Notes: generated from the letters alone by a model not told the origin. A stretch of DNA of 60,000 nucleotides from Malacoraja senta (GCA_038087875.1 CM075988.1:11658001-11718000), one strand, 5' to 3'; counted from the stretch's first letter, positions 5,690 through 59,800 are shown. Numbers and translations are program-made.

Positions 5690-5814
5690 AAGAAGGGTCT
5701 CGACCCAAAACGTCACCTATTCCTTCGCACCATAGATGCTGCCTCACCCGCTGAGTTTCTCCAGCATTTTTGTCTACCTTCGATTTTTCCAGCATCTGCA
5801 GTTCTTTCTTAAAC
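5690..5814 (+). mobile_element. Short Penelope-derived element (pLTR/hammerhead type)
   Basis: Matches the 3' end of Penelope 7854-7950; TSD TGTTCAACAGTTG at 5677-5689, right copy split by a CR1. Confidence 0.8.
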
Positions 5815-5822
5815 TGTTCAAC

Positions 5823-6734
5823 TGCGGATGACACTAAGCTGGGGGGCAGTGTTGGCTGTGAGGAGGATGCTAGGAGACTGCAAGGTGACTTGGATAGGCT
5901 GGGTGAGTGGGCAAATGTTTGGCAGATGCAGTATAATGTGGATAAATGTGAGGTTATCCACTTTGGTGGCAAAAACAGGAAAGCAGACTATTATCTAAAT
6001 GGTGGCCGATTAGGAAAAGGGGAGATGCAGCGAGACCTGGGTGTCATGGTACACCAGTCATTGAAAGTAGGCATGCAGGTGCAGCAGGCAGTGAAGAAAG
6101 GGAATGGTGTGTTAGCTTTCATAGCAAAAGGATTTGAGTATAGGAGCAGGGAGGTTCTACTGCAGTTGTACAGGGTCTTGGTGAGACCACACCTGGAGTA
6201 TTGCATACAGTTTTAGTCTCCAAATCTGAGGAAGGACATTATAGCCATAGAGGGAGTGCAGAGAAGGTTCACCAGACTGATTCCTGGGATGTCAGGACTT
6301 TCATATGAAGAAAGACTGGATAGACTTGGCTTATACTCGCTAGAATTTAGGAGATTGAGAGGGGATCTTATAGAAATGTACAAAATTCTTATGGGGTTGG
6401 ACAGGCTAGATGCAGGAAGATTGTTCCCGATGTTGGGGAAGTCCAGGACAAGGGGGTCACAGCTTAAGGATAAGGGGGAAATCCTTTAAGACCGAGATGA
6501 GAAAAAACTTTTTCACACAGAGTGGTGAATCTCTGGAACTCTCTGCCACAGAGGGTAGTTGAGGCCAGTTCATTGGCTATATTTAAGAGGGAGTTAGATG
6601 TGGCCCTTGTGGCTAAAGGGATCAGAGGGTATGGAGAGAAGGCAGGTACAGGATACTGAGTTGGATGATCAGCCATGATGATATTGAATGGCCGAATGGC
6701 CTACTCCTGCACCTATTTTCTATGTATCTATGTA
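5823..6734 (+). mobile_element. 5'-truncated CR1 LINE
   Basis: Starts at the ADDTKLGG motif; RT C-terminus LVRPHLEYC and LGLYSLEFRRLRGD; CTATGT-type tail; TSD TCAAC at 5818-5822 and 6735-6739. Confidence 0.95.
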
Positions 6735-7914
6735 TCAACAGTTGGAACTCAGTTGGAACCAAGAAGGCAACTTTTCTGAAAAAATTGGTGTGAACCAGCA
6801 TCTGCAGTTCCTTCCTACACGTCATCTGAAAACTTGTTGGATTCAGTTCACTTTAGAGCGAGGGTGAGACTTTGACCTATAATTACTGATGTTCTAAAAT
6901 AATTCCTGCTGCATGTTTTTGTTTCCATATCAGTCACAGATTTTGATACCACTTATCTGCAAGAGTTCCTTCTTTTAATTCCCAATATCAGAGGAGCACA
7001 ACTTACTGCACTTATTTGACATTTTCATTGCACACACCATCCATTTTGCCACACTCTCAGTGAGAGTGCCAATTAGTGTTGAATTATGGGGTAGTTTGTA
7101 CGCTGGGCTCATGCCCCTAGGAGCTGGCAACATTCCTAGATCTGGAAACACTGTTATTCATTTGAAATCCTATTAAATCCATTTCATGGCAAGATAATGA
7201 CAAGACCTATTGATTTAATTTATTGTGCTGTACAGATAAGAAACTGCTGGAATAGCCGCCTTCACCAGAGAGTGGAATGAGTGAGGAATATGTGATTGTT
7301 TCTTCGATTATTGTTACTATAAATGTGGCCAGATATGTTGATAGCACACATATTAAGTTTTGCCTGATTTAGGCATTTTATCAGTTCAGCAAGGCATATT
7401 ATTTGTAGCGCAAGCCAAGATAACCAGAAATGAACAGTGATGTTGAAAATGGGAGCCGGGATAAGATTAATTGTTTAAGTGTGAATCCATATCAGCACAA
7501 CTGCAGTGAGATGAATAATTTTATTCTGCATTAGGAGTTCTATGATTTTGTGCTCTATCAGATTCAGCCCAGTACGTGCAGTTATTAAGAGATTAATAAT
7601 GGAATATAACGAGTGCAAATTACAATAAGTTTCAAGTAGTGGATCAGAAAAAAAGGAAGTATATAACTGAAGAAACTTGATAATATTAAGAGTTTCCTTT
7701 TTATATGTGTTCTTGGAAAATAGGTACAGCTGTTATCTGAATGGTGTCAAGTAGGGAAAAGAGGAAGTACAATGAGATATGGGTGTCCTTGTTCAACAGT
7801 CACTGAAAGAAAGCATGCAGGTACAGCAGGCAGTGAAGAAAGCTAATGGCATGGTACACAAAAATGCTGGAGAAACTCAGCGGGTGCAGCAGCATCTATG
7901 GAGCGAAGGAAATA

Positions 7915-7948
7915 GGTAACGTTTCGGGCCGAAACCCTTCTTCAGACT
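7915..7948 (-). ncRNA. Minimal hammerhead ribozyme motif in Penelope pLTR
   Basis: Minus RNA: GU-CUGAAGA-A-GGGU(UUCG)GCCC-GAAAC-GUU-AC; core, stem II and loopless palindromic stem III are visible. Confidence 0.7.
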
Positions 7949-8062
7949 GATAGGGGGTGGGGAGAAGAAAGGAAAAAAGGAAAAAGGCGGAGGAGGAGCC
8001 CGAGGGCTGGGGGAGGGGAGGAGACAACCAGAGGGCTGATGAAGGGGAGGGGACAGCAAGGG

Positions 8063-8599
8063 CTAGCAGAATTGGGAGAATTCAATGTTCAAACCCCCAG
8101 GATGTAGACTGCCCAAGCGGAATATGAGGTGCATTTCCTCCAATTTACGGTGTTGCTCGCTGTGGCCATGGAGGAGACCCAGGACAGAGAGGTCAGATAC
8201 GGAATGGGAGGGGGAGTTGAAGTGCTGAGCCACCGGGAGTTCAGGTTGGTTATTGCGGACCGACCGGAGGTGTTCGGCGAAACGATCGCCAAGCCTCCGC
8301 TTGGTCTCACCGATGTAGATCAGCTGGCATCTAGAGCAGCGAATGCAATAGATGAGGTTGGAGGAGATGCAGGTGAACCTCTGTCGCACCTGGAACGACT
8401 GCTTGGGTCCTTGAATGGAGTGGAGGGGGGAGGTGAAGGGACAAGTGTTGCATCTCTTGCGGTTGCAAGGGAAAGTACCAGGGGAGGGGGTGGTATGGGA
8501 GGGAAGGGAAGAATTGACAAGGGAGTTACGGAGGGAGCGGTCTTTGCGGAAGGCAGACATGGGGGGGAGATGGGAAGATGTGGCGAGTGGTGGGGTCAC
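8063..8599 (-). CDS. Penelope-like GIY-YIG endonuclease, partial (RT absent)
   Basis: PCNRKRCNTC linker, NLIYCIRCSRCQLIYIGETKRRLGDRFAEH, VAQHFN, RKLEE..IFRLGSLHPGGLN; no internal stops. Confidence 0.9.
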   Translation of the reverse strand: MTPPLATSSHLPPMSAFRKDRSLRNSLVNSSLPSHTTPSPGTFPCNRKRCNTCPFTSPLHSIQGPKQSFQVRQRFTCISSNLIYCIRCSRCQLIYIGETKRRLGDRFAEHLRSVRNNQPELPVAQHFNSPSHSVSDLSVLGLLHGHSEQHRKLEEMHLIFRLGSLHPGGLNIEFSQFC

Positions 8600-8852
8600 G
8601 TTGGAGGTGGCGAAACTGACGGAGGTGTTTTGCCAAAGCTAATGGCATGTTGGCCTTCATAACAAGAGTAGTTGAGAATAGGAGCAAATAACTCCTTCAC
8701 CAGTTGTACAGGGCCCTAGAGAGCCCACACCTGGAGTATATTGGGCAGTTTTGGTCTCCAAGTTTGAGGAAGGACATCCTTACTATTGAGGGAGTGCAGC
8801 ATTGGTTCACAAGGTTAATTCCCGGGATGGCGAGTCTGTCATATGTTGATAG

Positions 8853-8970: not shown

Positions 8971-9008
<38 letters not shown>

Positions 9009-9810: not shown

Positions 9811-10254
9811 GTTGATAGAATGGAGCGACTGGGCTTGTATACACTGGAATTTAGAAGGATGAGAGGGAATCTTATTGAAACATATAAGATTATTAAGGGA
9901 TTGGACAGGCTAGAGGCAGGAAACATGTTCCCAATGTTGGGGAAGTGCAGAACCAGGAGCCACACTTTAAGAATAAGGGGTAGGCCATTTAGAATGGAGA
10001 TGAGGAAAATCTTTTTCACGCAGAGAGTTGTTAATCTGTGGAATTCTCTGCCTCAGAAGGCAGTGGAGGCCAATTCTCCGAATGCTTTCAAGAGAGAGTA
10101 AGACAGAGCTCTTAAAGATTGCAGAGTCAAAGGTTATGGGGAGAAGTCAGGAATGGGGTAGTGATTGTAGATGATCTGCCATGATCACAGTGAATGGTGG
10201 TGCTGGCTCGCAGGGCCGAATGGTCTATTCCTGCACCTATTGTATATTGTCTAT

Positions 10255-10425
10255 TGTTACTCCAGCATGTTGTGTATTTTTTTTTGTATACCAGCAATTG
10301 CAGTCTGAAGAAGGGTTCCAATCCAAAACGTCACCTATCCATGTTTGTCCAGGGTTGCAGTCTGACTTGCTGAGTTACTCCAGAACTTTGTCTTTTTGGG
10401 GGGTAAATCAGCATCTGCATTTCTT
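10255..10425 (+). mobile_element. Penelope-derived short element, partial tandem
   Basis: A 3'-end fragment is followed by CAGTCTGAAGAAGGG...AAAACGTCACCTATCC...GAGTTACTCCAG. Confidence 0.75.
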
Positions 10426-10584
10426 TATTTCTGCTGTTGTTCTTGTCTACAGACAACGCTATTTATTGCAGTTTTTGCTACTCTTTCGTAATTGTTCCCA
10501 AGAAGATGTGATTTCATGCCCTTCTGCGCTGCATATTTAATGCCCTTCACTACAGTATGTCATGGAAAGTCTACTGTTATCTGG

Positions 10585-13853: not shown

Positions 13854-14820
13854 TCAAGTCAAGTCACATTTATTTATATAGCACATTTAAAAAACAACTC
13901 TCGTTGGCCAAAGTGCTTTACATTTGTTATAAGAATAATATAAACAAACAAACTACATACATTTATACATATAGCCCTCGCTCAGAGGACGTCAAGAAAC
14001 GCTTGGGAGTATAGATACGTTTTTAGTCTTGACTTAAAGGAGTCGATGGAGGGGGCAGTTCTGATGGGAAGGGGGATGGTGTTCCACAGTCTAGGAGCTG
14101 CAACCGCAAAGGCGCGTTCGCCCCTGAGCTTATGCCTAGACCGCGGGTTATTCAGCAGCCCCAAGTCGACCGATCTGAGGGGCCTGGAGGTGGAGTGGTG
14201 GGTGAGAAGACTTTTAATGTAGGTGGGGGCAAGCCCATTGAGGACTTTGTAGACATAGAGGAGGATCTTGAAATGTATACGGAACCGCACAGGGAGCCAG
14301 TGGAGAGAGGCGAGGATCGGGGTGATGTGGTCCCTTTTTCGGGTGCCCGTCAGGAGTCTCGCTGCGGCGTTTTGGACCAGTTGCAGGCGGGACAGGGAAG
14401 ATTGGCTGATGCCAGTGTAAAGGGAGTTGCAGTAATCTAGGCGGGAGGAGATGAATGTGTGGATGATCTTTTCGAGGTCATGAAAGTGGAGGAATTGTTT
14501 TATTTTAGCTATCGTCCGAAGCTGAAAGAAGCTAGCTTTTACCATGGCATTGACTTGTTTGTCAAATTTCAGTGCTGAGTCAAATATCACGCCAAGGTTT
14601 TTGACGTGAGGTTTGAGTAGTGGGGTAAGGCTTCCAAGGCTGCCTGCTATCATTTTGTTTGAGTCCGAGGGGCCGAGAAGGAAGACCTCAGACTTACTCT
14701 CGTTTAGTTGGAGGAAGTTCTGGGCCATCCAACACTTTATATCCTCGAGGCAGTGGGTAAGGTTAAGCAGATTTGATTGGTTTTGGGGCTTCAGGGGGAG
14801 ATAGAGTTGTGTATCGTCTG
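13854..14820 (-). mobile_element. Young 5'-truncated L2-clade LINE
   Basis: L2-type tail TGTAAAGCACTTTGG...TGCTATATAAATAAA(TTGAC)n; TSD AGCAAG at 13848-13853 and 14821-14826. Confidence 0.9.
13982..14818 (-). CDS. L2 ORF2 C-terminal portion (from the RT DDTQLY motif), uninterrupted
   Basis: DDTQLY, WMAQNFLQLNESK, VKNLGVIFDS, SRLDYCNSL, LQLVQNAAAR, HITPILASLHWLPV; the ORF-track N-terminus lies in flanking DNA. Confidence 0.9.
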   Translation of the reverse strand, partial: DDTQLYLPLKPQNQSNLLNLTHCLEDIKCWMAQNFLQLNESKSEVFLLGPSDSNKMIAGSLGSLTPLLKPHVKNLGVIFDSALKFDKQVNAMVKASFFQLRTIAKIKQFLHFHDLEKIIHTFISSRLDYCNSLYTGISQSSLSRLQLVQNAAARLLTGTRKRDHITPILASLHWLPVRFRIHFKILLYVYKVLNGLAPTYIKSLLTHHSTSRPLRSVDLGLLNNPRSRHKLRGERAFAVAAPRLWNTIPLPIRTAPSIDSFKSRLKTYLYSQAFLDVL

Positions 14821-15164
14821 AGCAAGACATCTGTGCACCTTTTAAACCACTGTTTTTGCAATAAAGATCAACAAACTGTTTGCCATCTGATTGCTTGCTA
14901 CCCCCTGCACATAACTTGAACCATGAACACAGCCACACAAGTCTCTGGGCTCTTTTCAATCCCTTACCATTTAAAACAAATATACCACCTTTATATTTGT
15001 TTCAAAGTAGATGACATTTGGGCAGTTTATATTAATTTTCTCTGCTTTCTATTATATAATATTGTCCATTTTTCTTTTGAAATCTCAATACATCTTCTTC
15101 ACAACTCACACTGGCCAAACTTTCTCTCATCAGCAAATGTAGATCTATTACATTTGGTCAGTCA

Positions 15165-20506: not shown

Positions 20507-22192
20507 CAAGTCAAGTCAAGTCAAGTGAGTTTATTGTCATGTGTCCCTGATAGGACAATGAAATTCTTGATTTGCTTCAGTACAACAGAACATAGTAGGC
20601 ATTGACTACAAAACAGATCAGTGTGTCCATATACCATTCTATAAATATATACACACATGAATCAATATACTGATAAGGTGCCAATAACAGTTAATTGGCT
20701 AATAAAGTTCAGTGTTTTGTCCGAGCCAGGTTTAATAGCCTGATGGCTGTGGGGAAGTAGCTATTCCTGAACCTGGTCGTTGCAGTCTTCAGGCTCCTGT
20801 ACCTTCTACCTGAAGGTAGTAGGGAGATGAGTGTGTGGCCAGGATGGTGTGGGTCCTTGATGATACTGCCAGCCTTTTTGAGGCAGCGACTGTGATAGAT
20901 CCCCTCGATGGAAGGGAGGTCAGAGCCGATGATGGACTGGGCAGTGTTTACTACTTTTTGTAGTCTTTTCCTCTCCAGGGCGCTCAAGTTGCCGAACCAA
21001 GCCACGATGCAACCGGTCAGCATGCTCTCTACTGTGCACCTGTAGAAGTTAGAGAGAGTCCTCCTTGACAAACCGACTCTCCGTAATCTTCTCAGGAAGT
21101 AGAGGCGCTGATGTGCTTTTTTAATAATGGCATCAGTGTTCTCGGACCAGGAAAGATCTTCAGAGATGTGCAAGCCCAGGAATTTGAAGCTCTTGACCCT
21201 TTCAACCACCGACTGTGGGTCCCCATCCTACTCCTTCCAAAGTCCACAATCAGTTCCTTGGTTTTGCTGGTGTTGAGGGCCAGGTTATTGTGCTGGCACC
21301 ATATGGGCAGTTGCTCGATCTCTCTTCTATACTCTGACTCATCCCCATCAGTGATACGTCCCACAACAGTGGTGTCGTTAGCGAACTTGATGATGGAGTT
21401 CGCACTATGTGTGGCTACGCAGTCATGAGTATAGAGTGAGTACAGCAGGGGGCTGAGCACGCAGCCTTGAGGTGCTCCTGTGCTGATTGTTATCGAGGCT
21501 GACACATTTCCACCAATACGAACAGACTGTGGTCTGAGATTGAGGAAGTCGAGGATCCAATTGCAGAGGGATGCGCAGAGACCCAGTTCTGCGAGTTTGG
21601 TAACCAGCTTGGAGGGGATGATTGTGTTAAATGCCGAGCTGTAATCGATGAATAACAGCCTGACATATGTGTTTTTGTTGTCCAAGTGGTCCAGAGCGGA
21701 GTGGAGGGCCAGCGAGATCGCATCCACCGTTGATCTGTTGTGGCGGTAAGCGAACTGCAGTGGGTCCAGGTTTTTGTTGAGGTAGGAGTTGATCTGCGCC
21801 ATGATCAACCTCTCAAAGCACTTCATCACCACAGGCGTTAGTGCCACAGGTCGATAGTCATTGAGGCACGTCACCTTACTCTTCTTGGGCACCGGTATAA
21901 TTGATGCCCTTTTGAAGCAGGTGGGAACCTCAGGCCTCAGAAGTGAGAGGTTGAAAATGTCCATAAAAACTCCAGCCAGTTGGTCCGCACAGGTTTTTAG
22001 AACACGACCAGGTATACCATCAGGTCCAGGCACTTTTCGAGGGTTCACCCCTCTGAAGGATTTCCTGACGTCGGCCTCTGTGACTGAGACTGAAATACCA
22101 TCACAGCGAATGGGGGCTCGGGAAGGCACATCGGTGTTCTCCCTATCAAAGCGTGCGTAAAACGCATTGAGCTCATCAGGGAGTGATGAGTA
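20507..22192 (-). mobile_element. Young 5'-truncated Rex1/Babar LINE
   Basis: (TTGAC)n tail; inserted into CR1 CACATTT|ATCCAC with apparent TSD ATTT. Confidence 0.9.
20709..22190 (-). pseudogene. Rex1/Babar reverse transcriptase, frameshifted
   Basis: GPDGIPGRVLK, LNDYRPVALT, DPLQFAYR, LFIDYSSAFNTI, TGAPQGCVLSP; catalytic FADD reads FAND; frameshift near 21210 before VERVKSFKFLG. Confidence 0.9.
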
Positions 22193-22769
22193 ATTTATCC
22201 ACATTATACTGCTTCTGCCCCCTCCCCCAACCTGTCCAAGTCACCCTGCATCCTCATAGCATCCTCTTCACAGTTCACACTGCCACCCAGCTTTGTGTCA
22301 TCTGCAAATTTGCTAATGTTACTTTTAAATTTGAAGCCAAGACATCTCCTATCTACTTGTGCATAATCCATATTCTTCCATTCCCTGAATATCCATATGC
22401 CTATCCATATGCCTCTATTGTATCTGCCTCAATCACCAATCCCGGCAGCATGTTCCAGGCACTCACCCAGCATCTGTGTGCATTAAAAAAAATAGTTGTC
22501 TCACAAATCTCCTTAAACTTTGCCCCTTTCACCTTAGTATTTGATTGTTCCACCATGGGGAATAAGGTTCTGACACTCTATGCTATCTATGCCTGTCATC
22601 ATTTTATTTACTTCAATCGGGTTTCCCCACCACCAGCTTTCCAGAGAAAACAATCCAACAATCAGTCCGACCTCTCCCGATTTCAATAAAAGTATTTGCC
22701 TTCCTAAGTACTTGCTATACCTGCAAGTTAGTTAGCTGTGTACAATGACATCCAGCCTCCGCCATTGAA

Positions 22770-27309: not shown

Positions 27310-27480
27310 AAAACAATTGTGTGGAATATGCAGTATGTCAGGCAGCATCCACAGAAAGAAAAAATAAATAAATATTTCAGGCTGAAAACATCTGACCTGA
27401 AACATTGGCTTTGTTCCTCTTTCCACAGAGGCTGCCTGATCTGCCAAGAGCCTTCAGCATTTTCTGGTTTTTTTCCTGGA
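27310..27480. mobile_element. Old palindromic Penelope-derived element
   Basis: TCAGGCAGCATCCACAG...TTTCAGG | CCTGAAAC...GGCTGCCTGA inverted arms. Confidence 0.6.
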
Positions 27481-30400
27481 TTTAAATCTTTTTATTTTCA
27501 TGGAGTTTCTCACACTTCACCCATGTAATTTAAAGTTCTGATTTGGTTCCTGCCAGACACTAAGTAATTGACTCGGAGCCAGTTCAGCCAGGTCCCCTTT
27601 AAATTTGCTTTTCTTCCATGTGGCCATCCTAAACCAACCACTCCCTATCCTTCCACACATAGTACCATCATGTCCTTCAATCAATCATCTGACCTTTCCA
27701 TTCATACAACTATCAGTCCCCATTACACCAACCCTGGTCCATTGATAACACATTTATTCACCCACTCATCCCTTCCAGATGCTGATCGCCCAGAATTGGC
27801 TCCCCTTCATCGCCACACACCAATCACTGGATGGGCCACCCATTGATTACCTGACATGTCTCGTCCAACCCTGAGCCCATTAACGTTCCATCCAACAGGT
27901 ACCGCTGCCGGCACTGAATCCCACTGGTGATCGACGAACATTACCCGACTATTGCCCTAACCTCACCATCCCACCACTCTTCCAATTTAGATCCAGCACT
28001 CTCGCCTCTATCCCATCAGATCTGTGACAGAACTTGCGTGTTTTCCTTTGAGGTGTGGCATTTGCAAACCTTTCCTGTTTTGAAGTTTAATTGCTCTAGG
28101 TGCATCGGCTTCAAGCGTTCCTGAATTTCTCTTCTCATGACCCAAATTGGCACTCGGACCCAATTATCGCACTATTGGAGCTCCCAAGGTAAAGCACATT
28201 CAAACCTTTTTTGGGGCGAGGGGAATTCACCTGACAAATAAATGAAGAATGCATTGATAGGTAAATTGATGTCCATTTATTGCAACTCCTTTCATTGTGG
28301 CTTTTATATTACACAAATTCCAAATTGTTTCTATCCCATTGTCAAGTTTTGTTTGTCATCACTTATAAAATGAAGCAAAAATCTTTTCTGCACATATGTA
28401 TCTTCTTCATTCTGTGCCAAGCTGAGAATGTTCCAAATAAGCTCTGTCATCACAATCTTGGCAAGCTTGTTGTAGCTGTCAGAGCAAAATGTGACTGACT
28501 CATTTTACAGAGTAATGGTGCCCAGCATTTGATGATTGCAGTCAAATGAACACAACAAAACTAATCATAGCTGGTCTCCGAATCTTAACTCCCAGCAAGA
28601 GCAAACTAAATTTTCCCTTCCTGTCATAAATCATTCCAACATTTCGGAAGCAAAGCAGAGATGATTCTTCCATTTGCCACACACTTTGTAATATGCAACC
28701 AACATATTTACTACTGGCAGTGCATAAGATACAGTGCTGTTCTGCAACGTTTCAAAAAGCATGTTTATTTACCAAGGAAGTTGCTTCAAATTGTAGTTAA
28801 TTCGAAGTAAAAGATTACAAAATGATTGATGATAAATGGTTCCGTGGTCCATTGAATCCCAGTCGTAAAGTTTTCTATTTGAAGAAAAGGAAACTTGTTT
28901 TCTTGCATGTTTAATGTTCGGAAATTCGTGTAAGAGAATATGCTCAGTTGACCAGTTTGATAAATAGCAAGTAACAGGCTCGTTACTGGGATTGTTGGCA
29001 ATGTGGTAGCACTGATGTTAAATGGTGCAGTCCAAACAAAATTGCTTCTCTATGGAAATTGTGTGATTTAATTGCTGTGGATGGTGGTACTGTGAAGGTC
29101 CTGGCAGATGTAAAACATTAGTTGAATTGATCATGCAGTTTTATTCAGGAATTGTTGTATAGTATAGCAGATATTATTTATCAATGCACCTAGAACAAAT
29201 ACATGGTGATTTATGAAAAGATCAATCTGTCTGATTGGAGTGTCGTGTTTCTATATATTTTATTGAGCCATTCCTTATTGTTTAAGACACTAATATGAAG
29301 GATTAGTAGCCATGTCGAGCAGGAGAGCTGAGAAACTCGGCTATAAAAAACAGAGGTACAGATGTCCAGTGGGATATATAAACATGTATTTGCACACATC
29401 CAAGCTTTACCAAATGCAAAATCCATAAATCTCATGGATTTTATTTGCTTCACCTAATAGAGCTAAAAAAAGAACAGTGAAAGATAGACACACTTTCACT
29501 GAAATATTTGGACTGGATGCCAATGCATTCTTCCTTAGCCTATCCTAATTGCAAACTAATTGAAGCAGGATGATGAAGCATGTACAGGCAGATCTGATTA
29601 ATGGCACTTATTTAAAGAAGCTGATGACATTATTGCTTCAAATAATGCAAAGGAAAATTACATCAGCTAATTATCGATTGCAGAATTACATTTAGCTGGA
29701 GTCTAAGTAGTCAACGCTATTTATTAAACAGAAAAATTGGTTTCACTTAAAGGGGCTTTGTTTCGTTCCAAAGTCAGATGACTTTGTCACACCATTGTGG
29801 TTATATCACTGCCTTTGCTAAATCTTTGGAGCAAAGTGTTTCTCAAAAGTATCGTGCTCTTCCCCAAACCTGGAAACAACCTTCCTTGTTCCATTAGCTC
29901 TGCCTCACTCCCCTGTATGTCAGCAGCCAAACAAGAAAGCAGTGCTTGTGAATGTAGTTACAACATTTAGTTTGTGTTTGTTTGAACAATGACATTAACC
30001 ATGATGGGCCTGCTGTTCCCAGCAATGTAAACATTGAATGCTTTGTTGATGAATATATCTTTTAGTTGAATTTTGCCAAATAATTCAGTTACTGATGGGT
30101 ATCTGTTCAAGGGGCACATAGCAACCACTATCTTGTCTTCAGAATGGTCACATTCCCCATCACATTGTAATGCAAATAATTAATGTCATCTTTTACAAAA
30201 GCATTGTTGAGTGCATAACATTAAAGAAATTAAAATGCCCCCTTCCAAATGGTGGTGTAATAAAAGCAAGCGAACCATTGAAATCAATTGAAACTCCTTT
30301 GGATGTCACTGTAATATTACTGGGTTAGTGGGACAATGCAGTTTTGTGGAACAGTATCCCTGGGGAGTGACACCAGGCATGTTTTGAATTGTAAGTACCT

Positions 30401-37821: not shown

Positions 37822-38049
37822 GTAGGTAGACACAAAATGCTAGAGCAGGTCAGGTGGTATATCTGGAGAAAAATAATAGGTGGCGTTTTGGGTCGGAACC
37901 CTTCAGTCTGAAGAAGAGTTCCAACCAACCCCAAATATCACCTATTCTTATCTCCAGAGATACATACTGCCTGACCCGCTGAGTTACTCCAGCATTTTGT
38001 GTCCGTCTATGTATAAACCAGTATCTGCAGTTCCTTCCTACTCATTTTA
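37822..38049. mobile_element. Palindromic Penelope-derived element
   Basis: Arms inverted about CTTCAGTCTGAAG; TSD TTAAGCCACA at 37812-37821 and 38050-38059. Confidence 0.85.
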
Positions 38050-46454: not shown

Positions 46455-46862
46455 ATTATAAATGCAGATGCTGGAAATCTAAACCAATAATAGAAAATGC
46501 TGGAAACACTCCACAAATCAGATCACATCTGTTGGAAGGGTGATGTAGAAATGAGGAAATGCAGATGCTGGTTTGTAAAATAAGACTATGTGCTGGAATC
46601 GCTGCAGTTTCACATTTCACACCTATTCAATCTTATTGTCCCACACCTTCTGTCTTTTCATCTTCACTGGTCAACCATCTGCCTGTCAAAAAAAAACCTT
46701 CCCCATCCATGTTGGCCTATTGCTTGCCAGGCTTTGTCATGCCCCTTCCTCCCTTTTATCTTTCTTCTCTCCTCCCCTGCCTTGACAATCAGTCTGAAGA
46801 ATTGTCCCAACCCGAAACCTCACCTATCCATGTTCTCCAGAGATGCTGCCTGACCCGCTGAG
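46455..46862. mobile_element. Penelope-derived elements; the last copy is split by the hAT and resumes at 49532-49560
   Basis: CAGTCTGAAGAA..CCCGAAACCTCACC...GACCCGCTGAG | ATACTCCAGCACTTCGTGTC. Confidence 0.8.
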
Positions 46863-47092
46863 CAGGGCCGGCCTTAAGCCGATTGGACCGATTTCTCCCA
46901 ATTGGGCCCCGCGCCCAAGGGGGGCCCTGCATTAATTTTCCGTATTTCATACGGAAATACAAATTTGCTTTGTTAAATAAAGATTTTTAAAAAAACATTC
47001 GCCATACGGATTTTTTTACAAAACAAACATGGATAACAACCGCTGGGGCCCAATTGGGAGAAATCGATCCAATCGGCTTAAGGCCGGCCCTG
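46863..47092. repeat. 230-bp MITE-like unit with near-perfect 48-bp inverted repeats
   Basis: CAGGGCCGGCCTTAAGCCGATTGGACCGATTTCTCCCAATTGGGCCCC mirrored at 47045-47092 with one mismatch. Confidence 0.95.
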
Positions 47093-47326
47093 CCCGAGTG
47101 AGTGAGTGAGAGACAGGGAGACTCCATTTGCCAACGTCAGCAGCTGCATGTCGATCTCTTGAGTGAATGTGGCATGTGTGTTGGCTGGTCATTGCTGCAC
47201 CAGTAATATACACAGGAAAGTTAGACATTGTGTGTGGCAAGGTGCTGCACGGCCATCAGACACAAACGATTTGTTAACTACTACTGTTAGCACTTATTAA
47301 CAGCTAGTAGTTAACAAGTAGTTATA

Positions 47327-47499
47327 CAATGTGTCATCAATGCATCGATCCACATTCCTCAGTAAATTTAATTGTGTATTGAACAAGTATTAATGACGCT
47401 GCGTTCCTTTGAATACAATTCACGTGGCGTCATTAATACTTGATCAAAACACAATTACATTTACTGAGGAATGTAGATCGATGCATTGATGACACATTG
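47327..47499. repeat. 173-bp fold-back palindrome (plus a small hairpin at 47271-47317)
   Basis: CAATGTGTCATCAATGCATCGATC...GATCGATGCATTGATGACACATTG; arms of about 75 bp. Confidence 0.95.
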
Positions 47500-47734
47500 A
47501 GAATTTCTTAAAACTCACCATCACGATTGAGGGCTTCTTCTTGGCGAGCTCCTTCATCTGCAGCAGGTTTGTCATTCAATTTACCTACCGACCCACGTTG
47601 TGTCTCTCGGTCTTTCGCTCTCTCCTTCCCTCTCTCTCTCTCCCGCTCCCCATCTCATCTCTCTCTAACTCTCTCACTCCCTCTCTCTCACCCTGTTGCC
47701 TCGGCATTCCCGGAACCATTTACGTTTTGCGGAA

Positions 47735-47940
47735 GACAAAAATGCGGGAGAAACTCAGCGGGTGAGGCAGCATATATGGAGCCAAGGAAATAGGCAACGT
47801 TTCGGGTCGAAACCCATCTTCAGACCCGGCCCAAAACGTTGGCTATTTCCTTCGCTCCATAGATGCTGCCTCACCCGCTGAGTTTCTCCAGCATTTTTTG
47901 TCTACCTTCGATTTTCCAACATCTGCAGTTCCTTCTTAGA
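47735..47940. mobile_element. Palindromic Penelope-derived element (related copies at 48350-48450 and 48660-48950)
   Basis: Inverted arms GGAGAAACTCAGCGGGTGAGGCAGCAT / ATGCTGCCTCACCCGCTGAGTTTCTCC. Confidence 0.85.
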
Positions 47941-49176
47941 CGTTTTGCAGTGACGGCTGCATCTGCGGTTCCTTTCTTTTGGGGGGGAGGGGGGAGATAG
48001 TCCTGTCCCGTGGCGGCACCTGATAAGTGATATAATGTTTAAGAAGGAACTGCAGATGCAGGGTGCTGGTGGAAGGAGAGTGGTGCATTTGACAGCTGCC
48101 GTACATGTTCAAACAATGGGCTGCCATAGTGGGCTTGCCTTGGCATACATTTCTTGTATTTGTTATGTTATTAGAAATATTAGCACTAGACCCAAAAAGA
48201 AATAATAAAAACATCTCCAGTTGTCTTGTCTCTCTATGATACACGGAACCATGTTCGTATGTGGTGCAGTGCAATACTGGAGATTTTAAAGTTAGTTAAA
48301 ATATGTCACCTGCCCTGTTTCAGCTTTTTTGACCGAGGTCAATATTAATAACTCTCACGAGGCTGAAAGCTGCCATAGCCAGGCGTTGTCCATTCCTTCT
48401 CTCTGGGGATGCTGCCTGTCCCATTGAGTTACTCCAGCTTTTTGTGTCTATCTGTAGCCTAGCATTATTCGGCCTAGTGACCCTTGGACCCTTCCTTGCA
48501 TGTTGTTTCCATGTTTATAATAAATGTTTTCGGTGAACATTACCGCTGTTGGACACTCTGCCTTAGACGTGGTGCGTTGTGTATTACTGGCACTGCTAGT
48601 TACTTCGTCAAACGGTCACTGGAAACTACGTTTAGAAATGCTCGTGAAAATAATGATATGTTCCCTCTGCGGGTGCTGCCTTGCCCGCTGAGTTCCTCCA
48701 GCACTCCATGTTTTTTGTTTGGCTCTGAAGTTGACCCCCTGTGTCTACCTTTAACTCCCTGTCTGCGGTGGCTCAGCGGGACGGGCAGGGGCTCTAGGGA
48801 GAGGGTTGCGTTTCTGGTCGAAACCCTTCTTCAGACAATCACAAGTACTCTCACCGACGAGAGTTCAGTTCAGTCTGAAGAAGGGTCTTCTCTCCAGAGT
48901 CGCTGCGCAGTATGTCCTGCTGAGCTACTCCAGCTTTTGTCTATCTTCAATTTCAGAGTTAGATAAAAGTTCTCATGGGGGGCTTATAGCGTCAACACCC
49001 CCCCCCCCCACCCCACCCCCTTCCTTCCCAACCTCAGCCTCACGGACCTTAGCGTACCCCCAGTTCCTAAAACCCATTTCCATCACTGATCTGGCATATA
49101 AATTCATGACAGTGAGATCTAAAAATCATGTTATATTCTTGTGTGAATGGGATTAGTTTGTTATTTGGATACTTAG

Positions 49177-49419
49177 GCTATTTTTAAAAATTATCCTTTT
49201 CTTAAGAAATGGAATCTACAGGACATTCTTAATGGGAAAGTAGTGGGCAGAAAGGCATGTCATGTGTGGTTTGAAGAGCAAAAACTTGTAGTTTACAATG
49301 CCAAAAAGTTGAGGAAAAACAAGGTGTACAGAGTTGCTTATTGGTTACAATCTGAGGAGTATGATGATGCTACTGATTATGGTATGCCAATGAACCAGAT
49401 TTTTTTTAAATCCGACTGA
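49177..49419 (+). pseudogene. 80-codon open frame near the hAT right end; possible terminal exon of the element's gene
   Basis: AIFKNYPFLKKWNLQDILNGKVVGRKACHVWFEEQKLVVYNAKKLRKNKVYRVAYWLQSEEYDDATDYGMPMNQIFFKSD*, preceded by T-rich ...TACTTAG. Confidence 0.4.
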
Positions 49420-50109
49420 CTGTCATATTACTCACGACACGTGCCTGAATATGACTCATTTATAATTATATATTTATATTTCTATGAAAATTGTTCCCAA
49501 TAGGGCCCCGCACCTCCTAAGGCAGGCCCTGCTGCTGAGATACTCCAGCACTTCGTGTCCTCTTCTGTTGGAAGGGAGATGGATGGAAATCCTGTTGGAA
49601 TGGCATTGGTATGGCATTACTGGATGAGAAATGGCAGTGAGTCGAACAAGTGAAAAAAAAAAATTAACAGGAAAGTTGAAAATAAAAAATTGCAAATGCT
49701 GGAAATACAAGATGCACCTTCTTACAGCCACAGGCTGTCTTGCTCAATTTTGAGTGTCACTTTGGTCTGGTTGTTATTTTAGCAGAAGCACTAACTCTTT
49801 AAAAATAAACAGTTCGAAGGTTCGATCAACTGATGGGCCATGGAATACTCCATGAACACAAGTGGACTAATTGCTAGATATTCTATTCATAATAGGCCAG
49901 TCAAAGCTTTCACTCAAAATTTGAAGGTCAAGTGTTTTTAGTTCATATTTCAAGTGCAATTTATGCTAAGAGTATTTTTTAATTAGACAGAATTTTAAAC
50001 CTCTGTTACAAAATTAGTGGAGGGATACTGGTAGGATCGACATGGATAGTCAATATTCAAATAGTGGCCACATTTGGTGGACTTGTAACAAAATAACTGA
50101 AGCCATTTA

Positions 50110-50580: not shown

Positions 50581-53500
50581 CATCCATGTTCTCGTATATG
50601 TTCTCTCAGTGATCTCTGGAGTGGCATCTTAAATCAAACTTTTATCAGGCTTGCTGCCAGCCATTCAGGCATTCTGTGCACAAACATGATGTTCCAAAAC
50701 AAAGTTACACAGCATTTGTCATGCAAAGCAGAATAAGCTGACCTTGATCTTTCTAAGTTCACATTCAGCAGCAAATTATAAAACATTTCCTCGGAAACTC
50801 TAATTGTCTGTTCTTATTTGAATGGAGGAGGATTTGATCACTTTGGCTTGGGGTCAGATAGCCTGGCAAGTAGTAACGGCATTGTTCTGAAGTTAATGTT
50901 GGAACGCACTTTGAATCTCTCGTGATTTCCCTTTGCTCTCCTCATGGTATTTTAGTAAAGTGGTGCAAATAAAAGAGGGGAATGAATTGCATCTGTTTGA
51001 CAATTCCATGTTAAACGTTCATGCTTTTGAACATTTAGTTTGCTTTTGGAACGCAAGTAATTTCATTTTTTAATTTCTCTCAAAATAAATCGACTGAAAT
51101 GCTCTTGGAGTTTTTGCAGGCGGTCTGTTTCATTGAACCAAGACTGAGTTGAAATAAGAAAAATGATCCTGTTCAGAAAACTGGAGAATTGTTATGCAGT
51201 GAATGACTAATTCATTCCTCATTGTTTTGACAATGGCGGAAACGTTACATCGATCATATCAAGGAGAAGGGAAGAGTTATTGCTTTGCCAGAGATGAAGC
51301 ACAACAAATTCATATCTCAATTATCTTACTCTGGGGTCCAATGTGCTAGCATGGAGGTATTAAACAAAGCAGTTTTAATACTGTCAGGCAAAATACAAAT
51401 AATGCAGTATATAATCTAATGAAGTATCTGTGCAGGGACTATAATAGTAAATCACTAATTATTGCATTTTTAAGAAAGTTGAAATATAAATTATTAAAAA
51501 TATTCCAAGAGTCTACTCTTTTTTTTATTTGGACTGATCGAAACCAGAGTAGCTCAGCACAGGCTGACTTATAGGTGCCCCAACGTTCCATATTCAGAAT
51601 TTGATTTATAATAAGGACCCATTAATAAATCATTCTCTTAAATTAAAATTCAGCTAAGTCCATAGGGGGTTTGGAATACTCCAAAGTGGATTTATAGACA
51701 CACGGTGAGCATTTGCTCATAATTTCAGTTGCTGAACATTAATCATTATGCATGTAATGGGAGTTCTGATATACCTCCATTTTCTCAATGTGCATTGTTC
51801 AACACACAAAGCCAGAATGTGAAACCTAATTACACCAGTGAACATTGGAGAGACAGGATTAATATCACCTTGATGTGTGCAGCTGACCACTGTGAAGCAG
51901 TTATTATGATGAAGTGATTACTTTGGAAATCAAAATAATATCAAGAAATTGACAATTTTGCAGAGATCAGATTTTCAAGCTGGAAGACCTTCAGTTTTCT
52001 AAAATATAGATATGTAGATAGATCATTTTTTTAAACAAAGTTAATAATGTGTGGAGTTGTGAGGGAAACCGTCAATGAAAGGTTCACAAAATATTCATCT
52101 GAGAAACCATTTCAGTGCATGTGTGTGTGTATATGTATGTGTATATTTTTTGACTTTCTTCAGTATATATATTTTATATGTACTGAAGAAAGCAAAAATC
52201 ATTAAAAACGGCACATTGTACACAGATTGTTTCCATCTTCCTTTATGTTTTCCTACCACTAAATTAAATCAGCGGAGCAATTAGTAATGACAAAAGAAGA
52301 TATAAAGGGCTGGAGTAACTGAGCGGGCCAGGCAACACATCTGGAGAACATGGATGGGAAAGGTTTTGGGACGGGACCGTCGGTAAACCATCATCTGCTG
52401 TTCCTTGTTTCTACATTTCAGCAATCAATATTGTTTATTTTTAATGACATTCTGCAGCATGTTCAGATGGATCTTAAAAATGAGTTAACAGCCATATATT
52501 TATACACGGACAAATTGGGAAAGTGAAATAGCAAGGTATTGATAAACTCGTTAATGGGAGGCATGAGCTGTGGGTGGGTTAATGTGCAACAACAGGTCAG
52601 TATCCATTGCATCGTTTAACAGGTGAATCACTGGCTAGATGTGAAGTGAGATTAATATCACTAACTGGAACTCAGTCAGTTGGCAGGCTCATGTTGGTGT
52701 TTTGTGACTGAGGCCGTTCCCTCCTTGTAGGATTTTCGAAAGGCCATTCTGCAGCTGAATCAAATATTATTGACATTAAAACTGAATCTGCTTCACTAAA
52801 TTGGGTCCGACAGATAAACCAATGTTTAAATGAAGAGTGGTGTATTATCACGTGAAATAAGAATACTGTCATTTTGCACTCAGATTGTTAGCAAAGTGGA
52901 GCTGGAGCTAAAAGGTGTAGGGAGGAACTGTAGATGCTGGTTTACACCAAAGGTAGACACAAAATGCTTGAGTAACTCAGTGGGTTAGATAGCATCTCTG
53001 GAGAAAAGGAATAGGTGACGTTTCAGTTCGATATGGGTCATCAGTCACCTAAAATGTAATGGCACATGCATGTCATAGTTACTATGAATTTTTACCATAA
53101 ATTAAGCAGTCGTTAAGTTGTCGTAAAGCACATGATTCTTGAACAAGGTTGAGGTTAATTCAACGCAACCTGAAACTAAGTTCAAAAGAAAACTAAGTTT
53201 GGACAGGAAAAGTATGATTCAGAGTGGAAAGATAACTGAACAATGAGCTCGAGAGATGTATTGAGAAGTAGGTGGATTCTTCACAATGCCCTAGAGCATT
53301 TTTTCCATTTCCACCAACACCCATTACACGCTCACCTAGTCCATAAGGAATATTTACTCCTGAATTCCATTTGCATTAAACTGAGACCATCCAACTTCAC
53401 TTCCTGGTATGGTAAAAGATTCCCACATCCCTGATGTTTGCCTTCCCTTTCAATGCTGCCAGCTCACCATCCCTGTAAACTTCACCCTGTCCAACTCTCC

Positions 53501-53709
53501 AACCCTATATTTAATGATAGTCTGACTAAAAATGCATAATTTGTAAGAGGTCTCTCTCCGTAAAGGCTGCCTGACCAGGATATTACCAGGATTTCCCATT
53601 TTGTAGTTGCATGTTCAAGTTGTTGGCATTGGTTCAATGTGAGGCTTTCTGGAAAATAACAAGAATGATATAGTTTGATTGATTAAAGAAAGGTAATTCA
53701 AAAGTTCTG

Positions 53710-53920
53710 GAGTTACTCGATGGGCCAGGCAGCATCTCTGCAGAACATGGATAGGTGACATTTTTGATTAGACTCAGACGTTTTGGGTTTGGGGATTCTT
53801 CAGACCCTTCAGTTGGTCTTTCATCACCAATCTATGTTCTCCAGAGATGCTGTCTGAACTGCTGAGTCACTCCAGTACTGCTTTTTTTGTGAACCAGCAT
53901 CTGTAGTTCCTTGTTTCTAA
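53710..53920. mobile_element. Palindromic Penelope-derived element (others at 52290-52420, 52915-53050, 56380-56550, 57870-57980)
   Basis: TSD TAATTCAAAAGTTCTG (53694-53709) / TAACTCAAAAGTTCTG (53921-53936). Confidence 0.8.
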
Positions 53921-56056: not shown

Positions 56057-56774
56057 AATATTTTAAAACTTAAATGGTGGAAAAGATTGAAATGTAGTTG
56101 AGATCTTACAAACATTAGGATTCCGATCAACGGTTTCAACCACTGCTTAGAGTTTTCATGGTAGAATGTGTTTTATGATTATCGATTTTCCATGGAACTA
56201 AAAATTCTCACTTTGACTAAGCAACCAGTCTAATGAACTAAATGGGGGAATTGATAGCTGACATTATTTAGCTTCAGCATAGAAATCGGCAGCAGAGTTG
56301 CAGGCAACTTCATTTATGTTGTCTATGCCAGATGACAAACAGTTTTTCAAAGATACTTAATCACCCATTTATCAATAACCCTAACCCTCCCCCATCTTTA
56401 TCAATGTATCATTTGCCAGGATTTGTGCAGCCCCCACCTATTTGCCAGCTTTCTCCCCCTACTGCATTCAATCTGAAATAAGTTCTGTCCATTCCCTCCA
56501 GGGATGCTGCCTGACCCGCTAGGCTTCTCCAGCACTTTGTGTTTTGGTTCAGATAGACGTGATTCCCAGTTACTCCCTAGTTGTGCCAAAGATGTTTGCC
56601 GTTAGGTAATGTTTGCCTCTCATGTAATTCCAAATAACTGTCACTCCTTAATCATTTTTATTGATGCTTATTAATAATTCTAAATTTAAGCCGCCTTTTA
56701 TGAAATGGGCCCTTTTTCTATATCATCCTATGCAAGTCTCTCCTTATGTTTTGTTCTTCAATTAGCCTGGGTAT

Positions 56775-57580
56775 TGAAGAATTGGAGCTCCGGACTCAGT
56801 TGTTCACAATCTACATCAATGATTTGGACAAAAGTAATATTTCCAAGCTTGATGTTTGGAAATATTGAAGCTTAAAGGTCAGGTGAAAGTGAAGGTTATG
56901 GGACGATGCAGAGAAGCTTCAGAGGGATATGGAAAACCAAGCACATGGGGGATGAAAAATAATGGGGAGAAAACAATGTAAGAACAATAGAACTACTTCG
57001 GTTGAACAATAGAAAGTGGCAGACTTTATTTTAAACAGTGAGAGGACGAATGATCATGGTGTTCATAAGTATCTACTGTCCTTGTACATGAATCACTGAA
57101 AGTTAATGTGCAGGCAGCATTTAGGAAGACAAATAGTACTTTGAGTCCTGAAAAGTGCTATATAAATAAAATGTATTATTATTATTATTATTATGTTAAC
57201 CTTTAGCGCAAAAGGATAAGATTACAATGATAGATACATCTTGTTTCAGTGATGTACCAGTCATAGTGTTGTGAATACTTCAGAAGAAAGGACGCACTTA
57301 CGATAGACAATGTCTGATGGAGGTTCACCATATTGATTCCTGAGTTGGTGGGTATTTGTATCGTGACAGATAGCTGGCAAACAAAGTCTGCATTCACTTG
57401 AGCTGAGAAGAATGAGAAGGGCACAAAAAGCCAGAAGAAGGGTCACCCATTCCTTTTCTCGAGAGATGCTGCCTGTCCCGCTGAGTTACTCCAGCTTTTT
57501 GTGTCTATCTTTGGTTTAAACCAGCATCTGCAGTTCCTTCTTACACAAAGAATGAGAAGGATCTTGCTGAAACACACAAC
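56775..57580 (+). mobile_element. Decayed CR1 holding an L2 tail (about 57139-57193) and a Penelope-derived insert (57421-57547)
   Basis: TTCACAATCTACATCAATGATTTGGAC; L2 tail GTGCTATATAAATAAAATG(TAT)n; insert TSD AAGAATGAGAAGG at 57408-57420 and 57548-57560. Confidence 0.75.
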
Positions 57581-59359
57581 ATGACCTGCTCTGCTGTCAC
57601 CACACCATTCATGCATTGTAAACCATTAAATTGGCAATGCATCTGTCTAAAATATAATTTTCAATTATTACCTTGTGAATACAAAAATAATTGTAGTCTT
57701 GGATCTGTACATTTGTGATTTTGCTCCAAAATTGTGTTGTCAAGAATATCATAAATGTTCATTGATTCAACTCTGCAGCATTCTCATTAGCTGAATCATA
57801 TTTCAAAGCACATTTGACTACACAGTGACAAAAATACCAATAACATGCGAGGCCAACGTGACTAAGACTAATAGTAGAAACAAGGAACTGAAGTAGGGAC
57901 CTGACCCGACATGTCACCTATTAATTTTCTTCAAGGATGGTGCCTGAATTGTTGAGTTACTCCAGCACTTTGTGTCTTTGAGTAAGATTAATGTTGGTTG
58001 GATAATAATCTCTACCTGATCTCAGTTTCATGCGATGGTGAGAAACTTTTTGTTGGTTTTCTTAAACATAACTTTTTTTTAAAAATCTGAACACCGTCCA
58101 GTGGAGTGAGCGCAAGAAGCTATAACTCTACATCAAGGTGAGATACGTATGCTTTGTAGAAGATTTCTATGGTGGGGGTGGTGTGGGAAGAAGGGAATTG
58201 GGGATTTGGGCCCTGGACCTGGTGTGTTTAACCAGGGCGTTGGTGGAGAGGTTTGGTGATGTAGAGGGGGTTGAAGATGTGATTGTGAGATGGGGTATGT
58301 TGAGGTTCACGATTGTCACGTTTACCGAGGGACAGGGAAAAGAATTGTTTGCATGCAATCCAATCAGATCAGATAATACTACACATAAATAGAATTAAGT
58401 CTAACTCAAGTACAAGGGGAAGGTACAGAATATAATTCTCTGTATTGCAGCACACCGATTCAATCGACACAGCCCAGTGTTCGTAATGGGGTTGAGATGA
58501 ATTGGACAGTACTGCAGCTTATAGAGATAGAGATGGTGCAGATAGGTTGAAGGTGGTGAAGGCCCAAAGTGAAGTACAATAGGTAGAATGGAGGGGAGGA
58601 TACAGAAGAGGGGGTCAGTATTCACATTAAACAAAAGCTCACTTGTACTGGGTTCCTATCACTAGACACCACAGGATGGAACTTCCTCAGGCTTCCTTTG
58701 AATGGCCTCTCATACATGATGGTGTGCCACTGTGGGAGTAGCTCATGGCATACAAAGGATGAGTTTGTCAGTGCATTTCAGGAGAGACATCCAGCTGTGC
58801 TTTGCATGCCTTTGGGCACTTACCCAGGTATCTCTGTTTTAATGAGCTGTGAAGACAGAGTATCAGAAAATATATATTGTTATCCATATTCAGCAATCAA
58901 TATTCTGATGTGATTCTACTGCAGAGTGCAAGTCGTGTCTTTAAGTGGAGCCAACCACTCACCATATTGGACCTCTGTTGCACTTTGCAGCAGAAAAACA
59001 GAGATGGTAGCAGTAGTCATGTAAATGAGCAGCTTGGACAACATTGGCAGGCTGCCTGCTTTGGAAGTTGATTAATTGCTCTTCACAATCTCCATGACTC
59101 GTTTTGATTGGGGTGTTACGAGATAAGGAGGGAGTGACTAAACCCTCAAGAGTTTGTTCAGGGTGTTGATCAAATTAAGTCCTCCAAGAAACTCCCGAAA
59201 GGATATCAAGAGAATGAAAACTCATGGAAACCAAGAGAAAGTGGCAGGTCGGATTAAAAATTGTCTCGAGGGAAAAATGCAAATAGTCATGTTCAACAGG
59301 AACTTAACTTACTGGAAGAATGTGTGCAAAGGGATTTAGCAGGGGCTAGTACTGGACTT

Positions 59360-59800
59360 AAAAAAGAAATGCTGGAGTAACTCAGTGGGTCAGGGAGCAT
59401 CTTTGGAGAGCATGGATGGATGGATGGATGCGTTTTGGGTCAGTATCACCTATTGGCTATGACACATTATCCTGGCCCTCTTTTCCTCTAGCTTTCTTTT
59501 CCACCCCAACAATCAATCTGAAGAAGGGTCCCGACTCGAAATGTCACCTATCCGTGTCCTCCAGAGATGCTGTCTGAGCTGAGTTATTCCAGTACTTTGT
59601 CTTTTTTTTTGTAAACAACCATCTGCTGTTCCTTGTTTCTTCACTACCAGACTATTTGTTTTGATCATTCAGTCTGAAGAAGGGTCCCAACTCGAAGAGT
59701 CGCCTATCCATTGGACTCCACGGTGCTGCTTGACCCGCTGAGTTACTCCAGCATGTTGGCTCCTTTTGTGTAAACCACCATCTGCAGCTCCTTGTTTCTA
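59360..59800 (+). mobile_element. Two adjacent Penelope-derived hammerhead-type elements within a CR1 relic
   Basis: CTGAAGAAGGGTCCC cores at 59518 and 59674. Confidence 0.8.

Follow-up and report, generated by a model that had tools for sequence, protein, structure and literature searches.

The question raised by a 60,000-nucleotide stretch of Malacoraja senta DNA (GCA_038087875.1 CM075988.1:11658001-11718000; the whole stretch is called the window hereafter) was how its many short copies of the pseudo-long terminal repeat (pLTR) of a Penelope-like element (PLE), with its minimal hammerhead ribozyme motif, had come to be dispersed there. An earlier note, made from the sequence alone, had proposed a retrozyme-like non-autonomous family. 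The copies were abundant Penelope pLTR stubs with a minimal hammerhead, probably left by Penelope insertion of the ordinary kind, and as ribozymes most of them were dead; the retrozyme-like family was not upheld: there were no arrays and no starts at the cut site, the anatomy was that of ordinary PLEs, and a clade was shared with a copy bearing an open reading frame (ORF). The stubs were probably stub-sized, target-primed insertions made by the reverse transcriptase (RT)/GIY-YIG protein of a Neptune-type Penelope in several successive subfamilies.

The iterated profile search (nhmmer) gave 40 matches at E<1 and 35 at E<1e-3, with 0 in the reversed window, which bore out the earlier count of more than 15 short copies. 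These 35 matches, grouped by hand, represented about 22 insertions (one per ~2.7 kb) rather than 35, because 12 insertions carried two opposed arms and one copy was split by a later transposon. The copies spanned several subfamilies with pairwise identity of 49-91%. The young stubs were 89-91% identical to the ORF-bearing copy at 7854 and fell into the same clade (support 100/99), while the copy at 46749, which bore the upstream untranslated region (UTR), was 88% identical to the stub arm at 53823. The two arms of the 37822 insertion grouped together in the tree, as did those of the 48770 insertion; 12 of the 23 inner branches were open, and the tree did not place the older subfamilies. The upstream UTR was common to four older copies and aligned weakly with the UTR of the 7854 copy, and each main subfamily had members reaching into the UTR. 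The clade shared by stubs and ORF copy, together with these long and short members, pointed to several subfamilies and not to one short family.

The Penelope placed at 7854-8634 (minus strand) by the earlier note did carry the GIY-YIG and linker of the Neptune/Nematis type, but it was itself a 781-bp 5'-truncated copy of an endonuclease-bearing (EN+) PLE without RT, composed of linker, GIY-YIG endonuclease, 3' UTR, and a pLTR ending at the short 3' end (see below). The host of this copy was a CR1-like long interspersed nuclear element (LINE), the name CR1 being presumed from sequence likeness, and a perfect 15-bp target-site duplication (TSD) flanked the copy at 7839-7853/8635-8649. No RT match to related proteins was found in the window; the 7854 copy, lacking RT and flanked by a TSD, was thus a truncated insertion that had moved with a TSD. 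Its ORF remnant (8063-8624, minus strand) contained a CX4CxxC linker, GIY-YIG, and CCHH-type residues; the Pfam GIY-YIG match (E=1.7e-4, 22.2 bits) lay just below the curated cut-off of 22.6. The closest proteins to the ORF at 8063-8614 came from Rhincodon, Mobula, Stegostoma, Chiloscyllium, and Hypanus (26 matches among 501 candidates, at 53-66% identity; 60-66% is the range given for shark and ray proteins), which made a cartilaginous fish the most likely host, and 44% identity was shared with protein P0008, in which RT and GIY-YIG were both above cut-off. The segment CNRKRCNTC represented the CX2-5CxxC linker ahead of the endonuclease, its residues C50 and C55 being invariant across 10 sequences (alignment A1), and this linker is described as the mark of Neptune and Nematis PLEs in excerpts of PMC8557442. 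The assignment of the parent as a Neptune/Nematis-type EN+ PLE was supported at sequence level by GIY-YIG plus the CX4CxxC linker. The predicted Stegostoma protein P0003 had the C-terminus LMKGLRPKRQ, which reads like translation through the same hammerhead and suggests that sharks may have a Penelope with this ribozyme, wrongly annotated as P0003. Among viral contigs, five candidate relatives of the window endonuclease were met and none was confirmed.

The intact core of the 7854 copy (7918-7945, minus strand) was a minimal type I hammerhead composed of CUGAAGA, a bulged A, a 4-bp stem II, and GAAAC-GU-U, with the predicted cut between 7918 and 7917. All seven motif positions named earlier (7945-, 10305, 37310, 46794, 47823-, 59518, and 59674) were present, and 'about a dozen' was a fair count of recognisable motifs; intact cores were another matter, since a full core with stem II and self-pairing stem III was kept at only 3 of the 18 audited sites (7945-, 47823-, and 59518+), most copies being mutated as the note had said. 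The strict descriptor found 47823- and 59518+, with 0 matches in 20 shuffles; 7945- was judged intact by eye because greedy matching made the descriptor miss it. Stem II had 4 bp, and stem I had 2 bp at 7945 and 1 bp at 59518, in agreement with the earlier caution of about 2 bp. The CUGANGA/GAAA core was conserved over its flanks, the point at which the earlier note had held its ribozyme vulnerable: non-CpG consensus agreement was 170/180 (0.944) in the core vs 1883/2341 (0.804) in the flanks (permutation p=0.0005), and the comparison with the best-conserved downstream blocks gave p=0.0135, alignment-edge bias being removed in part only. Catalytic G12, which lies in a CpG and hence decayed in copies, was kept in 12 of 20 copies, and A13 in 21 of 21. 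This pattern was that expected if selection acts on master elements while copies decay.

The hammerhead comparison was extended to 80 metagenome loci (L001-L080) carrying a related endonuclease (~50% identity), nearly all from one sample and representing invertebrate relatives. These loci gave 40 descriptor matches vs 0 in five shuffles, and 39 matches were one motif with the same spacing, ~105 nt past the stop codon. L046 carried a different hammerhead with a 6-bp stem I on its minus strand. From window to relatives, two compensatory changes were seen, stem I pair 2 from G-C to C-G and stem II pair 4 from U-A to C-G, which amounted to two events between two lineages in 17 hand-picked rows (9 from the window and 8 of 29 plus-strand relatives). 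These changes and the shared geometry supported the earlier description, indicating that the hammerhead is genuine at the element level, its stem III lacking a loop and A9 being followed by one additional base. The Rfam search of the window gave two matches at E<=1, both unrelated and far below gathering scores, and none to a hammerhead family; a degenerate core pattern had 0 matches in metagenome, viral, and genome contigs.

Stem I had 3 bp in most relatives vs 1-2 bp in the window. The dimer fold of the 7945 piece had -6.5 kcal/mol vs -29.8 kcal/mol for the minimum free energy (MFE) structure under a model that ignores tertiary contacts, and monomer folds had no common structure, the hammerhead being the MFE structure in none. 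Given the 1-2-bp stem I and a dimer fold far above the MFE, the window hammerhead would probably depend on a protein for self-cleavage, as excerpts of PMC11167929 report for PAc, the Poseidon element of Anolis. At position 7917 (N1.1), G replaced A in most of the contig depth of all four runs, so that a U-G pair likely closes stem I of the young master. Position 17 was U in the two intact cores of young copies.

The TSD survey found direct repeats scoring at least 8 around 8 of 22 clusters vs 9 of 300 random intervals; the cluster boundaries were set by hand, which made the TSD p-values optimistic. All five TSDs named earlier scored at least 8: 37180 (13/15), 37812 (10 bp), 53694 (15/16), 57408 (13 bp), and 5677 (8 bp exact, or 13 bp after removal of a CR1 from the right copy, 5815-5822 plus 6740-6744). 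Beyond these, TSDs were found at 47722 (9 bp) and 57859 (12/14, the weakest), in addition to that of the 7854 copy (7839/8635). The earlier statement that the copies moved as short units thus stood for the TSD-flanked short insertions themselves but did not imply a separate short template: the 781-bp truncated copy had a TSD too, so a TSD proved a short cDNA and not a separate short template.

The order of activity was partly readable from later insertions. CR1-like LINE fragments lay at 5823-6734, 7700-7853, 8650-8850, and 9813-10260; one CR1 had landed, with a 5-bp duplication, within the TSD belonging to the 5690 stub, and another hosted the 7854 Penelope, which placed these events in relative order. 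The copy at 46749-46862 resumed at 49532, past a 2.67-kb DNA transposon-like insertion (46863-49531) with terminal inverted repeats matching at 14 of 16 positions, an 8-bp TSD (7/8), and four further stubs inside; its size is typical of hAT elements. The target of the 37195 insertion (37172-37484) was a 12-bp inverted repeat around the TSD, and its right half resembled the element tail.

The insertions displayed two recurrent 3' ends: a short end ~90 nt after C3 and a long end ~130 nt after C3, the latter adding a 35-40-nt tail. Head-to-head inversions made up 12 of the ~22 insertions (two weak), with both 3' ends pointing outward; among these 12, the tail was clearly at one end only in seven, two were ambiguous (37195 and 59352, with a possible second-end remnant), and three could not be judged. 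The relatives had 3' ends peaking at +90-99 and +145-150, and of their 17 loci with both strands, 11 inverted pairs had both ends visible, all 11 carrying exactly one tail. The one-tail inverted anatomy was also found in long endonuclease-bearing relatives. The short end and tail of the relatives resembled those of the window in sequence and spacing, which suggests that RT start signals may be conserved.

The proposed series of steps was as follows. The protein would nick both strands 9-16 bp apart, TSDs of this kind being observed; RT would then begin at either of two fixed positions within the RNA, ~90 and ~130 nt after C3, which are the observed ends; where both nicks served as primers, two cDNAs from different start sites would join by microhomology to give the one-tail head-to-head inversion. 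The hammerhead would be functional in masters and a passenger in stubs, which would decay neutrally, and stub formation would need neither cleavage nor RNA circles. According to excerpts of PMC11167929, the PAc protein in vitro elongates both strands of the target, starting at two positions inside the RNA, ribozyme mutants leave insertion unaffected, and unprocessed RNA is the main substrate. Excerpts of PMC3846280 offer another model for inversions, namely self-priming on an antisense template; two-strand priming and antisense self-priming are not separated by the window data.

The 5' ends of the stubs were clustered just before the core. Among the 35 matches, 13 started at model columns 43-53 (C3 = 53; from 8 nt ahead of the core to 1 nt inside it), 0 at columns 17-42, 5 further upstream, and 17 downstream; the nominal p for this pile-up was below 1e-12 under the downstream truncation rate, a value inflated by alignment edges and overlapping arms. 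The overlap-free decomposition had an arm starting between -8 and +1 in 10 of 16 insertions. The upstream pyrimidine content was 27-67% for stubs vs 77-97% for UTR-bearing copies, so the DNA before stubs was not the pyrimidine-rich UTR. Among the best-supported loose contig ends listed, three contig sets had a peak 2-3 nt before the core: at 7947 for X1, with 149 contigs, and for X2, with 217, and at 7948 for X19, with 37; their flanks were long, heterogeneous, and AT-rich (agreement 0.32-0.37), and they were separate from purine-rich ends at 7950-7951 that marked the UTRs of other subfamilies. The hotspot (7946-7949, minus strand; G 7947, A 7948) lay inside the near-palindromic TCAGTCTGA, which also ends a pyrimidine tract with CAG; its initiator (Inr)-like and splice-acceptor labels follow consensus sequences. 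The summed contig depth over the pLTR was several-fold above that over UTR/ORF in X1, which is not a copy number and was not used.

The simplest reading of this boundary would be run-off cDNA from an RNA 5' end at the Inr-like TCAGT. That many cDNAs stop 2-3 nt before the core because uncleaved RNA begins there was held to be a little short of an even chance; the candidate RNA starts would be those of the element transcript in the 5' pLTR or of a short transcript of a stub. Taken further, the Penelope transcript might start 2-3 nt before the core, the ribozyme DNA might double as start-site/promoter region, and each 95-135-nt stub might be both a run-off ('strong-stop'-like) cDNA and a complete, re-mobilisable RNA polymerase II unit, a rather unlikely extension that was put forward tentatively. 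If it were true, the genome would preserve an enormous archive of past two-strand priming events, marked by a fixed RNA 5' end and two fixed RT starts, and the ribozyme would travel uncleaved, cut down to a 2-bp stem I. Excerpts of PMC2377424 describe an internal TATA-less promoter in D. virilis Penelope. Boxes A and B of RNA polymerase III were considered and rejected by eye: stem II resembled a B box, and no A box lay at a usable distance. RT pausing at the ribozyme was thought unlikely, since the observed stop is located beyond the structure instead of at the 3' foot.

Several observations weighed against this account of the stubs. The older subfamilies had no linked ORF in the window, and their masters could be non-autonomous. 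The 5'-boundary data came from contigs and not from RNA 5' ends; X22 had no 7947/7948 peak among its best-supported loose ends listed; and the pile-up was inflated because local alignments tend to stop where the last conserved block does. Of the 21 inverted arms in relatives, only 2 started between -10 and +4, and the relatives had no TCAGT motif, so the stop was not a general PLE trait; these relatives were picked via their endonuclease and hence biased to long templates. Two contig joints, one record each, lay at the cleavage site (7916 to 7857 in X1 and 7916 to 7861 in X2), which hints weakly at a possible minor class of cleaved products.

The same boundary would be accommodated by a SINE-like (short interspersed nuclear element-like) non-autonomous family, in which the 95-135-nt unit is a full transcription unit with an Inr-like TCAGT start and internal promoter, and stubs beget stubs from linear uncleaved RNA with Penelope protein acting in trans. 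This was considered unlikely: the sharp 5' boundary (a strong peak, but with 17 of 35 matches starting downstream of it and 5 upstream), the lack of upstream sequence in 30 of 35 matches with only two ORF fragments in the window, the TATA-less promoter of D. virilis Penelope (PMC2377424, excerpts), and the A. vaga pLTRs that hold an Inr-like TCACT and suffice in trans (PMC3846280, excerpts) all speak for it, but the stubs had no clade of their own, the young ones grouping with the ORF-bearing 7854 copy, inverted arms differed between loci, and UTR-reaching members occurred in each main subfamily. Target-primed products could alternatively be the same with a boundary set otherwise, either by a splice acceptor (pyrimidine tract plus CAG before TCTGA) or by annealing or cutting at the TCAG-T-CTGA palindrome, and this was likewise considered unlikely. 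An intron of D. virilis ends at the 5' side of helix I in excerpts of PMC4209133, but the loose flanks, heterogeneous and AT-rich, showed no common upstream exon, and the AG is missing in the relatives. Both arms of the 37822 insertion were joined at the palindrome, and palindromes are common at inverted junctions of PLEs (PMC3846280, excerpts); against either device, in 37310, 47823, and 57888 one arm stopped at -2 to +1 and its partner started elsewhere.

The non-LTR retrozyme mode, with tandem units transcribed, self-cleaved as dimers, circularised, and reinserted, was regarded as very improbable in spite of the real dimer-type hammerhead, the partial tandems at 10256, 37333, and 59518/59674, and the two cut-site joints, whose kind is not stated; excerpts of a preprint (10.64898/2026.07.22.740005) also report retrozymes in one chondrichthyan genome and propose a pLTR origin for them. 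Tandem Repeats Finder gave seven rows in the window with 0 unit arrays, the only related row being a 38-bp duplication at 37333; among the 16 decomposed insertions, 0 arms started at the cleavage site (+28), the nearest being at +26, and arms kept the uncleaved core. Furthermore, 59518 and 59674 belonged to two separate insertions, 82% identical and with the second core broken; the 7945 dimer fold was poor (see above); and retrozyme hammerheads are canonical and sit in 220-350-nt tandem units in excerpts of PMC7229834. Recombination between the two pLTRs of full-length elements would leave solo pLTRs retaining a TSD, and solo pLTRs are known in A. vaga, but the A. vaga solos are without TSDs (both PMC3846280, excerpts) and recombination cannot give head-to-head arms of 11-130 nt with microhomology joins, so that this origin was hardly credible. 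Target-primed insertion by the Neptune-type protein was the favoured reading.

The individual insertions are given here in order of position. The left part of the window contained a direct short copy with tail of the young subfamily (5690-5814, plus strand; starting inside the core, G12 lost, TSD 5677-5689), a tail-only remnant (6785-6818, plus strand) found as a profile match, and a partial tandem (10256-10433, plus strand) composed of a 3' piece with tail, a CAGT microhomology join, and a unit that begins immediately ahead of its core (10305), in which G12 was lost. An old inverted insertion (27331-27486) had a weak minus arm and a plus arm from ~6 nt before the core, and another, old and weak (32972-33079), was recognized by profile match and arm decomposition. 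A copy of an older subfamily with the upstream pyrimidine-rich UTR (36934-37130, minus strand; upstream limit approximate) had a mutated G8. Two inverted insertions followed: 37195-37461, with a tailed minus arm, a plus arm from the core (37310), two more partial repeats, and TSD 37180/37462, and 37822-38049, with a short-ended minus arm, a tailed plus arm, both beginning at the TCAG-T-CTGA palindrome, and TSD 37812/38050.

The inverted insertion 46461-46862 combined two minus-strand pieces, each with a tail, and a plus copy that bore the UTR and had a broken stem II in its core (46794); the 3' remainder of this plus copy, displaced by the DNA transposon, lay at 49532-49567 (plus strand). A young inverted insertion (47731-47939; TSD 47722/47940) had a minus arm that ran from 2 nt ahead of its intact core (47823) to the short end and a plus arm from stem II to tail. 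It was followed by a short copy without 5' core (48373-48461, plus strand) and one with the downstream part only (48661-48718, plus strand), both profile matches, and by an inverted insertion (48770-48950) in which both arms started just before the core (48834-, 48875+) and both hammerheads were broken. The inverted insertion 52288-52413 had a minus arm from stem II to the short end and a tail-only plus arm; the minus copy with tail at 52915-53046 had a scrambled stem II and a TSD that was not significant; and the complex inverted insertion 53703-53920 (TSD 53694/53921) had a tailed plus arm and two minus pieces, one of which ran from -2 through the core as far as the cut site. A UTR-bearing copy with deleted hammerhead lay at 56432-56556 (plus strand). 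Further inverted insertions were 57421-57547 (short-ended minus arm of ~11 nt, tailed plus arm that had lost stem II, TSD 57408/57548), 57873-57980 (tail-only minus arm, CTG microhomology join, plus arm from C3, weak TSD 57859/57979), and 59352-59642, whose plus copy bore the UTR and a core (59518) that was intact apart from a C15.2-to-U change. A separate direct copy with tail (59665-59800, plus strand) started its own core (59674, broken at A15.1) 156 nt after the 59518 core.

The surroundings contained four other features on the minus strand. A C-terminal endonuclease fragment of a second Penelope subfamily (2020-2180) was 70% identical to the 7854 copy, and no pLTR was detected with it. 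The segment 25455-25640 was a probable host-gene exon, charged and with a KKRK stretch, and without Pfam or PDB match; if this exon is real, the stubs would lie in introns. A 1.5-kb LINE fragment (20709-22240) contained RT, matching Pfam RVT_1 at E=3e-28, and had an ALKBH8_N-like domain at its C-terminus. A 339-aa open frame (13982-15001) had no Pfam match and presumably resembles the C-terminal part of an L2-like LINE.

The stub family as such was ordinary, dispersed minimal hammerheads from truncated Penelope having been published already; its value lies in the material it gives on how PLEs make inverted one-tailed insertions and on a possible role of the ribozyme in this. Exact predictions for the RNA start and the RT start sites follow from the sharp 5' stop and the strict one-tail rule, and TSD-flanked short hammerhead units should not be scored as retrozymes. 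In the open-access literature, no account of a 5' stop just before a Penelope hammerhead was found, the pairing of hammerhead ribozyme with cartilaginous fish gave only an unrelated match, and Penelope with twin priming, inverted, and truncated gave only a human review; among the matches listed, none joined Penelope with strong-stop and none described the stub family of this window.

The comparison with known systems was made from excerpts of the papers cited. The non-LTR retrozymes (PMC7229834; 10.64898/2026.07.22.740005) resembled the window elements in type I hammerhead, pLTR ancestry, long TSDs, and many dispersed monomers, but they are defined by tandem units with a complete ribozyme plus circular RNA, and tandem units were not found in the window. 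The minimal hammerheads of metazoan PLE pLTRs (among them fish Neptune, Poseidon, and Xena; PMC4209133) shared with the window the loopless palindromic stem III, the extra base between 9 and 10.1, and G10.1-C11.1; the window differed by its 4-bp stem II and 1-2-bp stem I, and cartilaginous fishes are not named in the excerpt. The same source ascribes thousands of dispersed single motifs to truncated PLEs and describes a D. virilis variant with a 2-bp helix I. The canonical EN+ PLE insertions (PMC3846280 and PMC8557442) had, like those of the window, TSDs of ~9-16 bp, an inverted 5'-truncated head-to-head copy, a 30-40-bp one-end tail, microhomology joins, and partial tandems, while the window arms were usually under 135 nt and many ended at one point before the ribozyme. 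PAc is of Poseidon and not Neptune type, and the excerpt of PMC11167929 describes no 5' run-off boundary; it agreed with the model proposed for the window in having two internal RT starts downstream of the hammerhead, both target strands extended, and an uncleaved template, and the stubs would argue for such an uncleaved RNA template in vivo, in agreement with that in vitro study.

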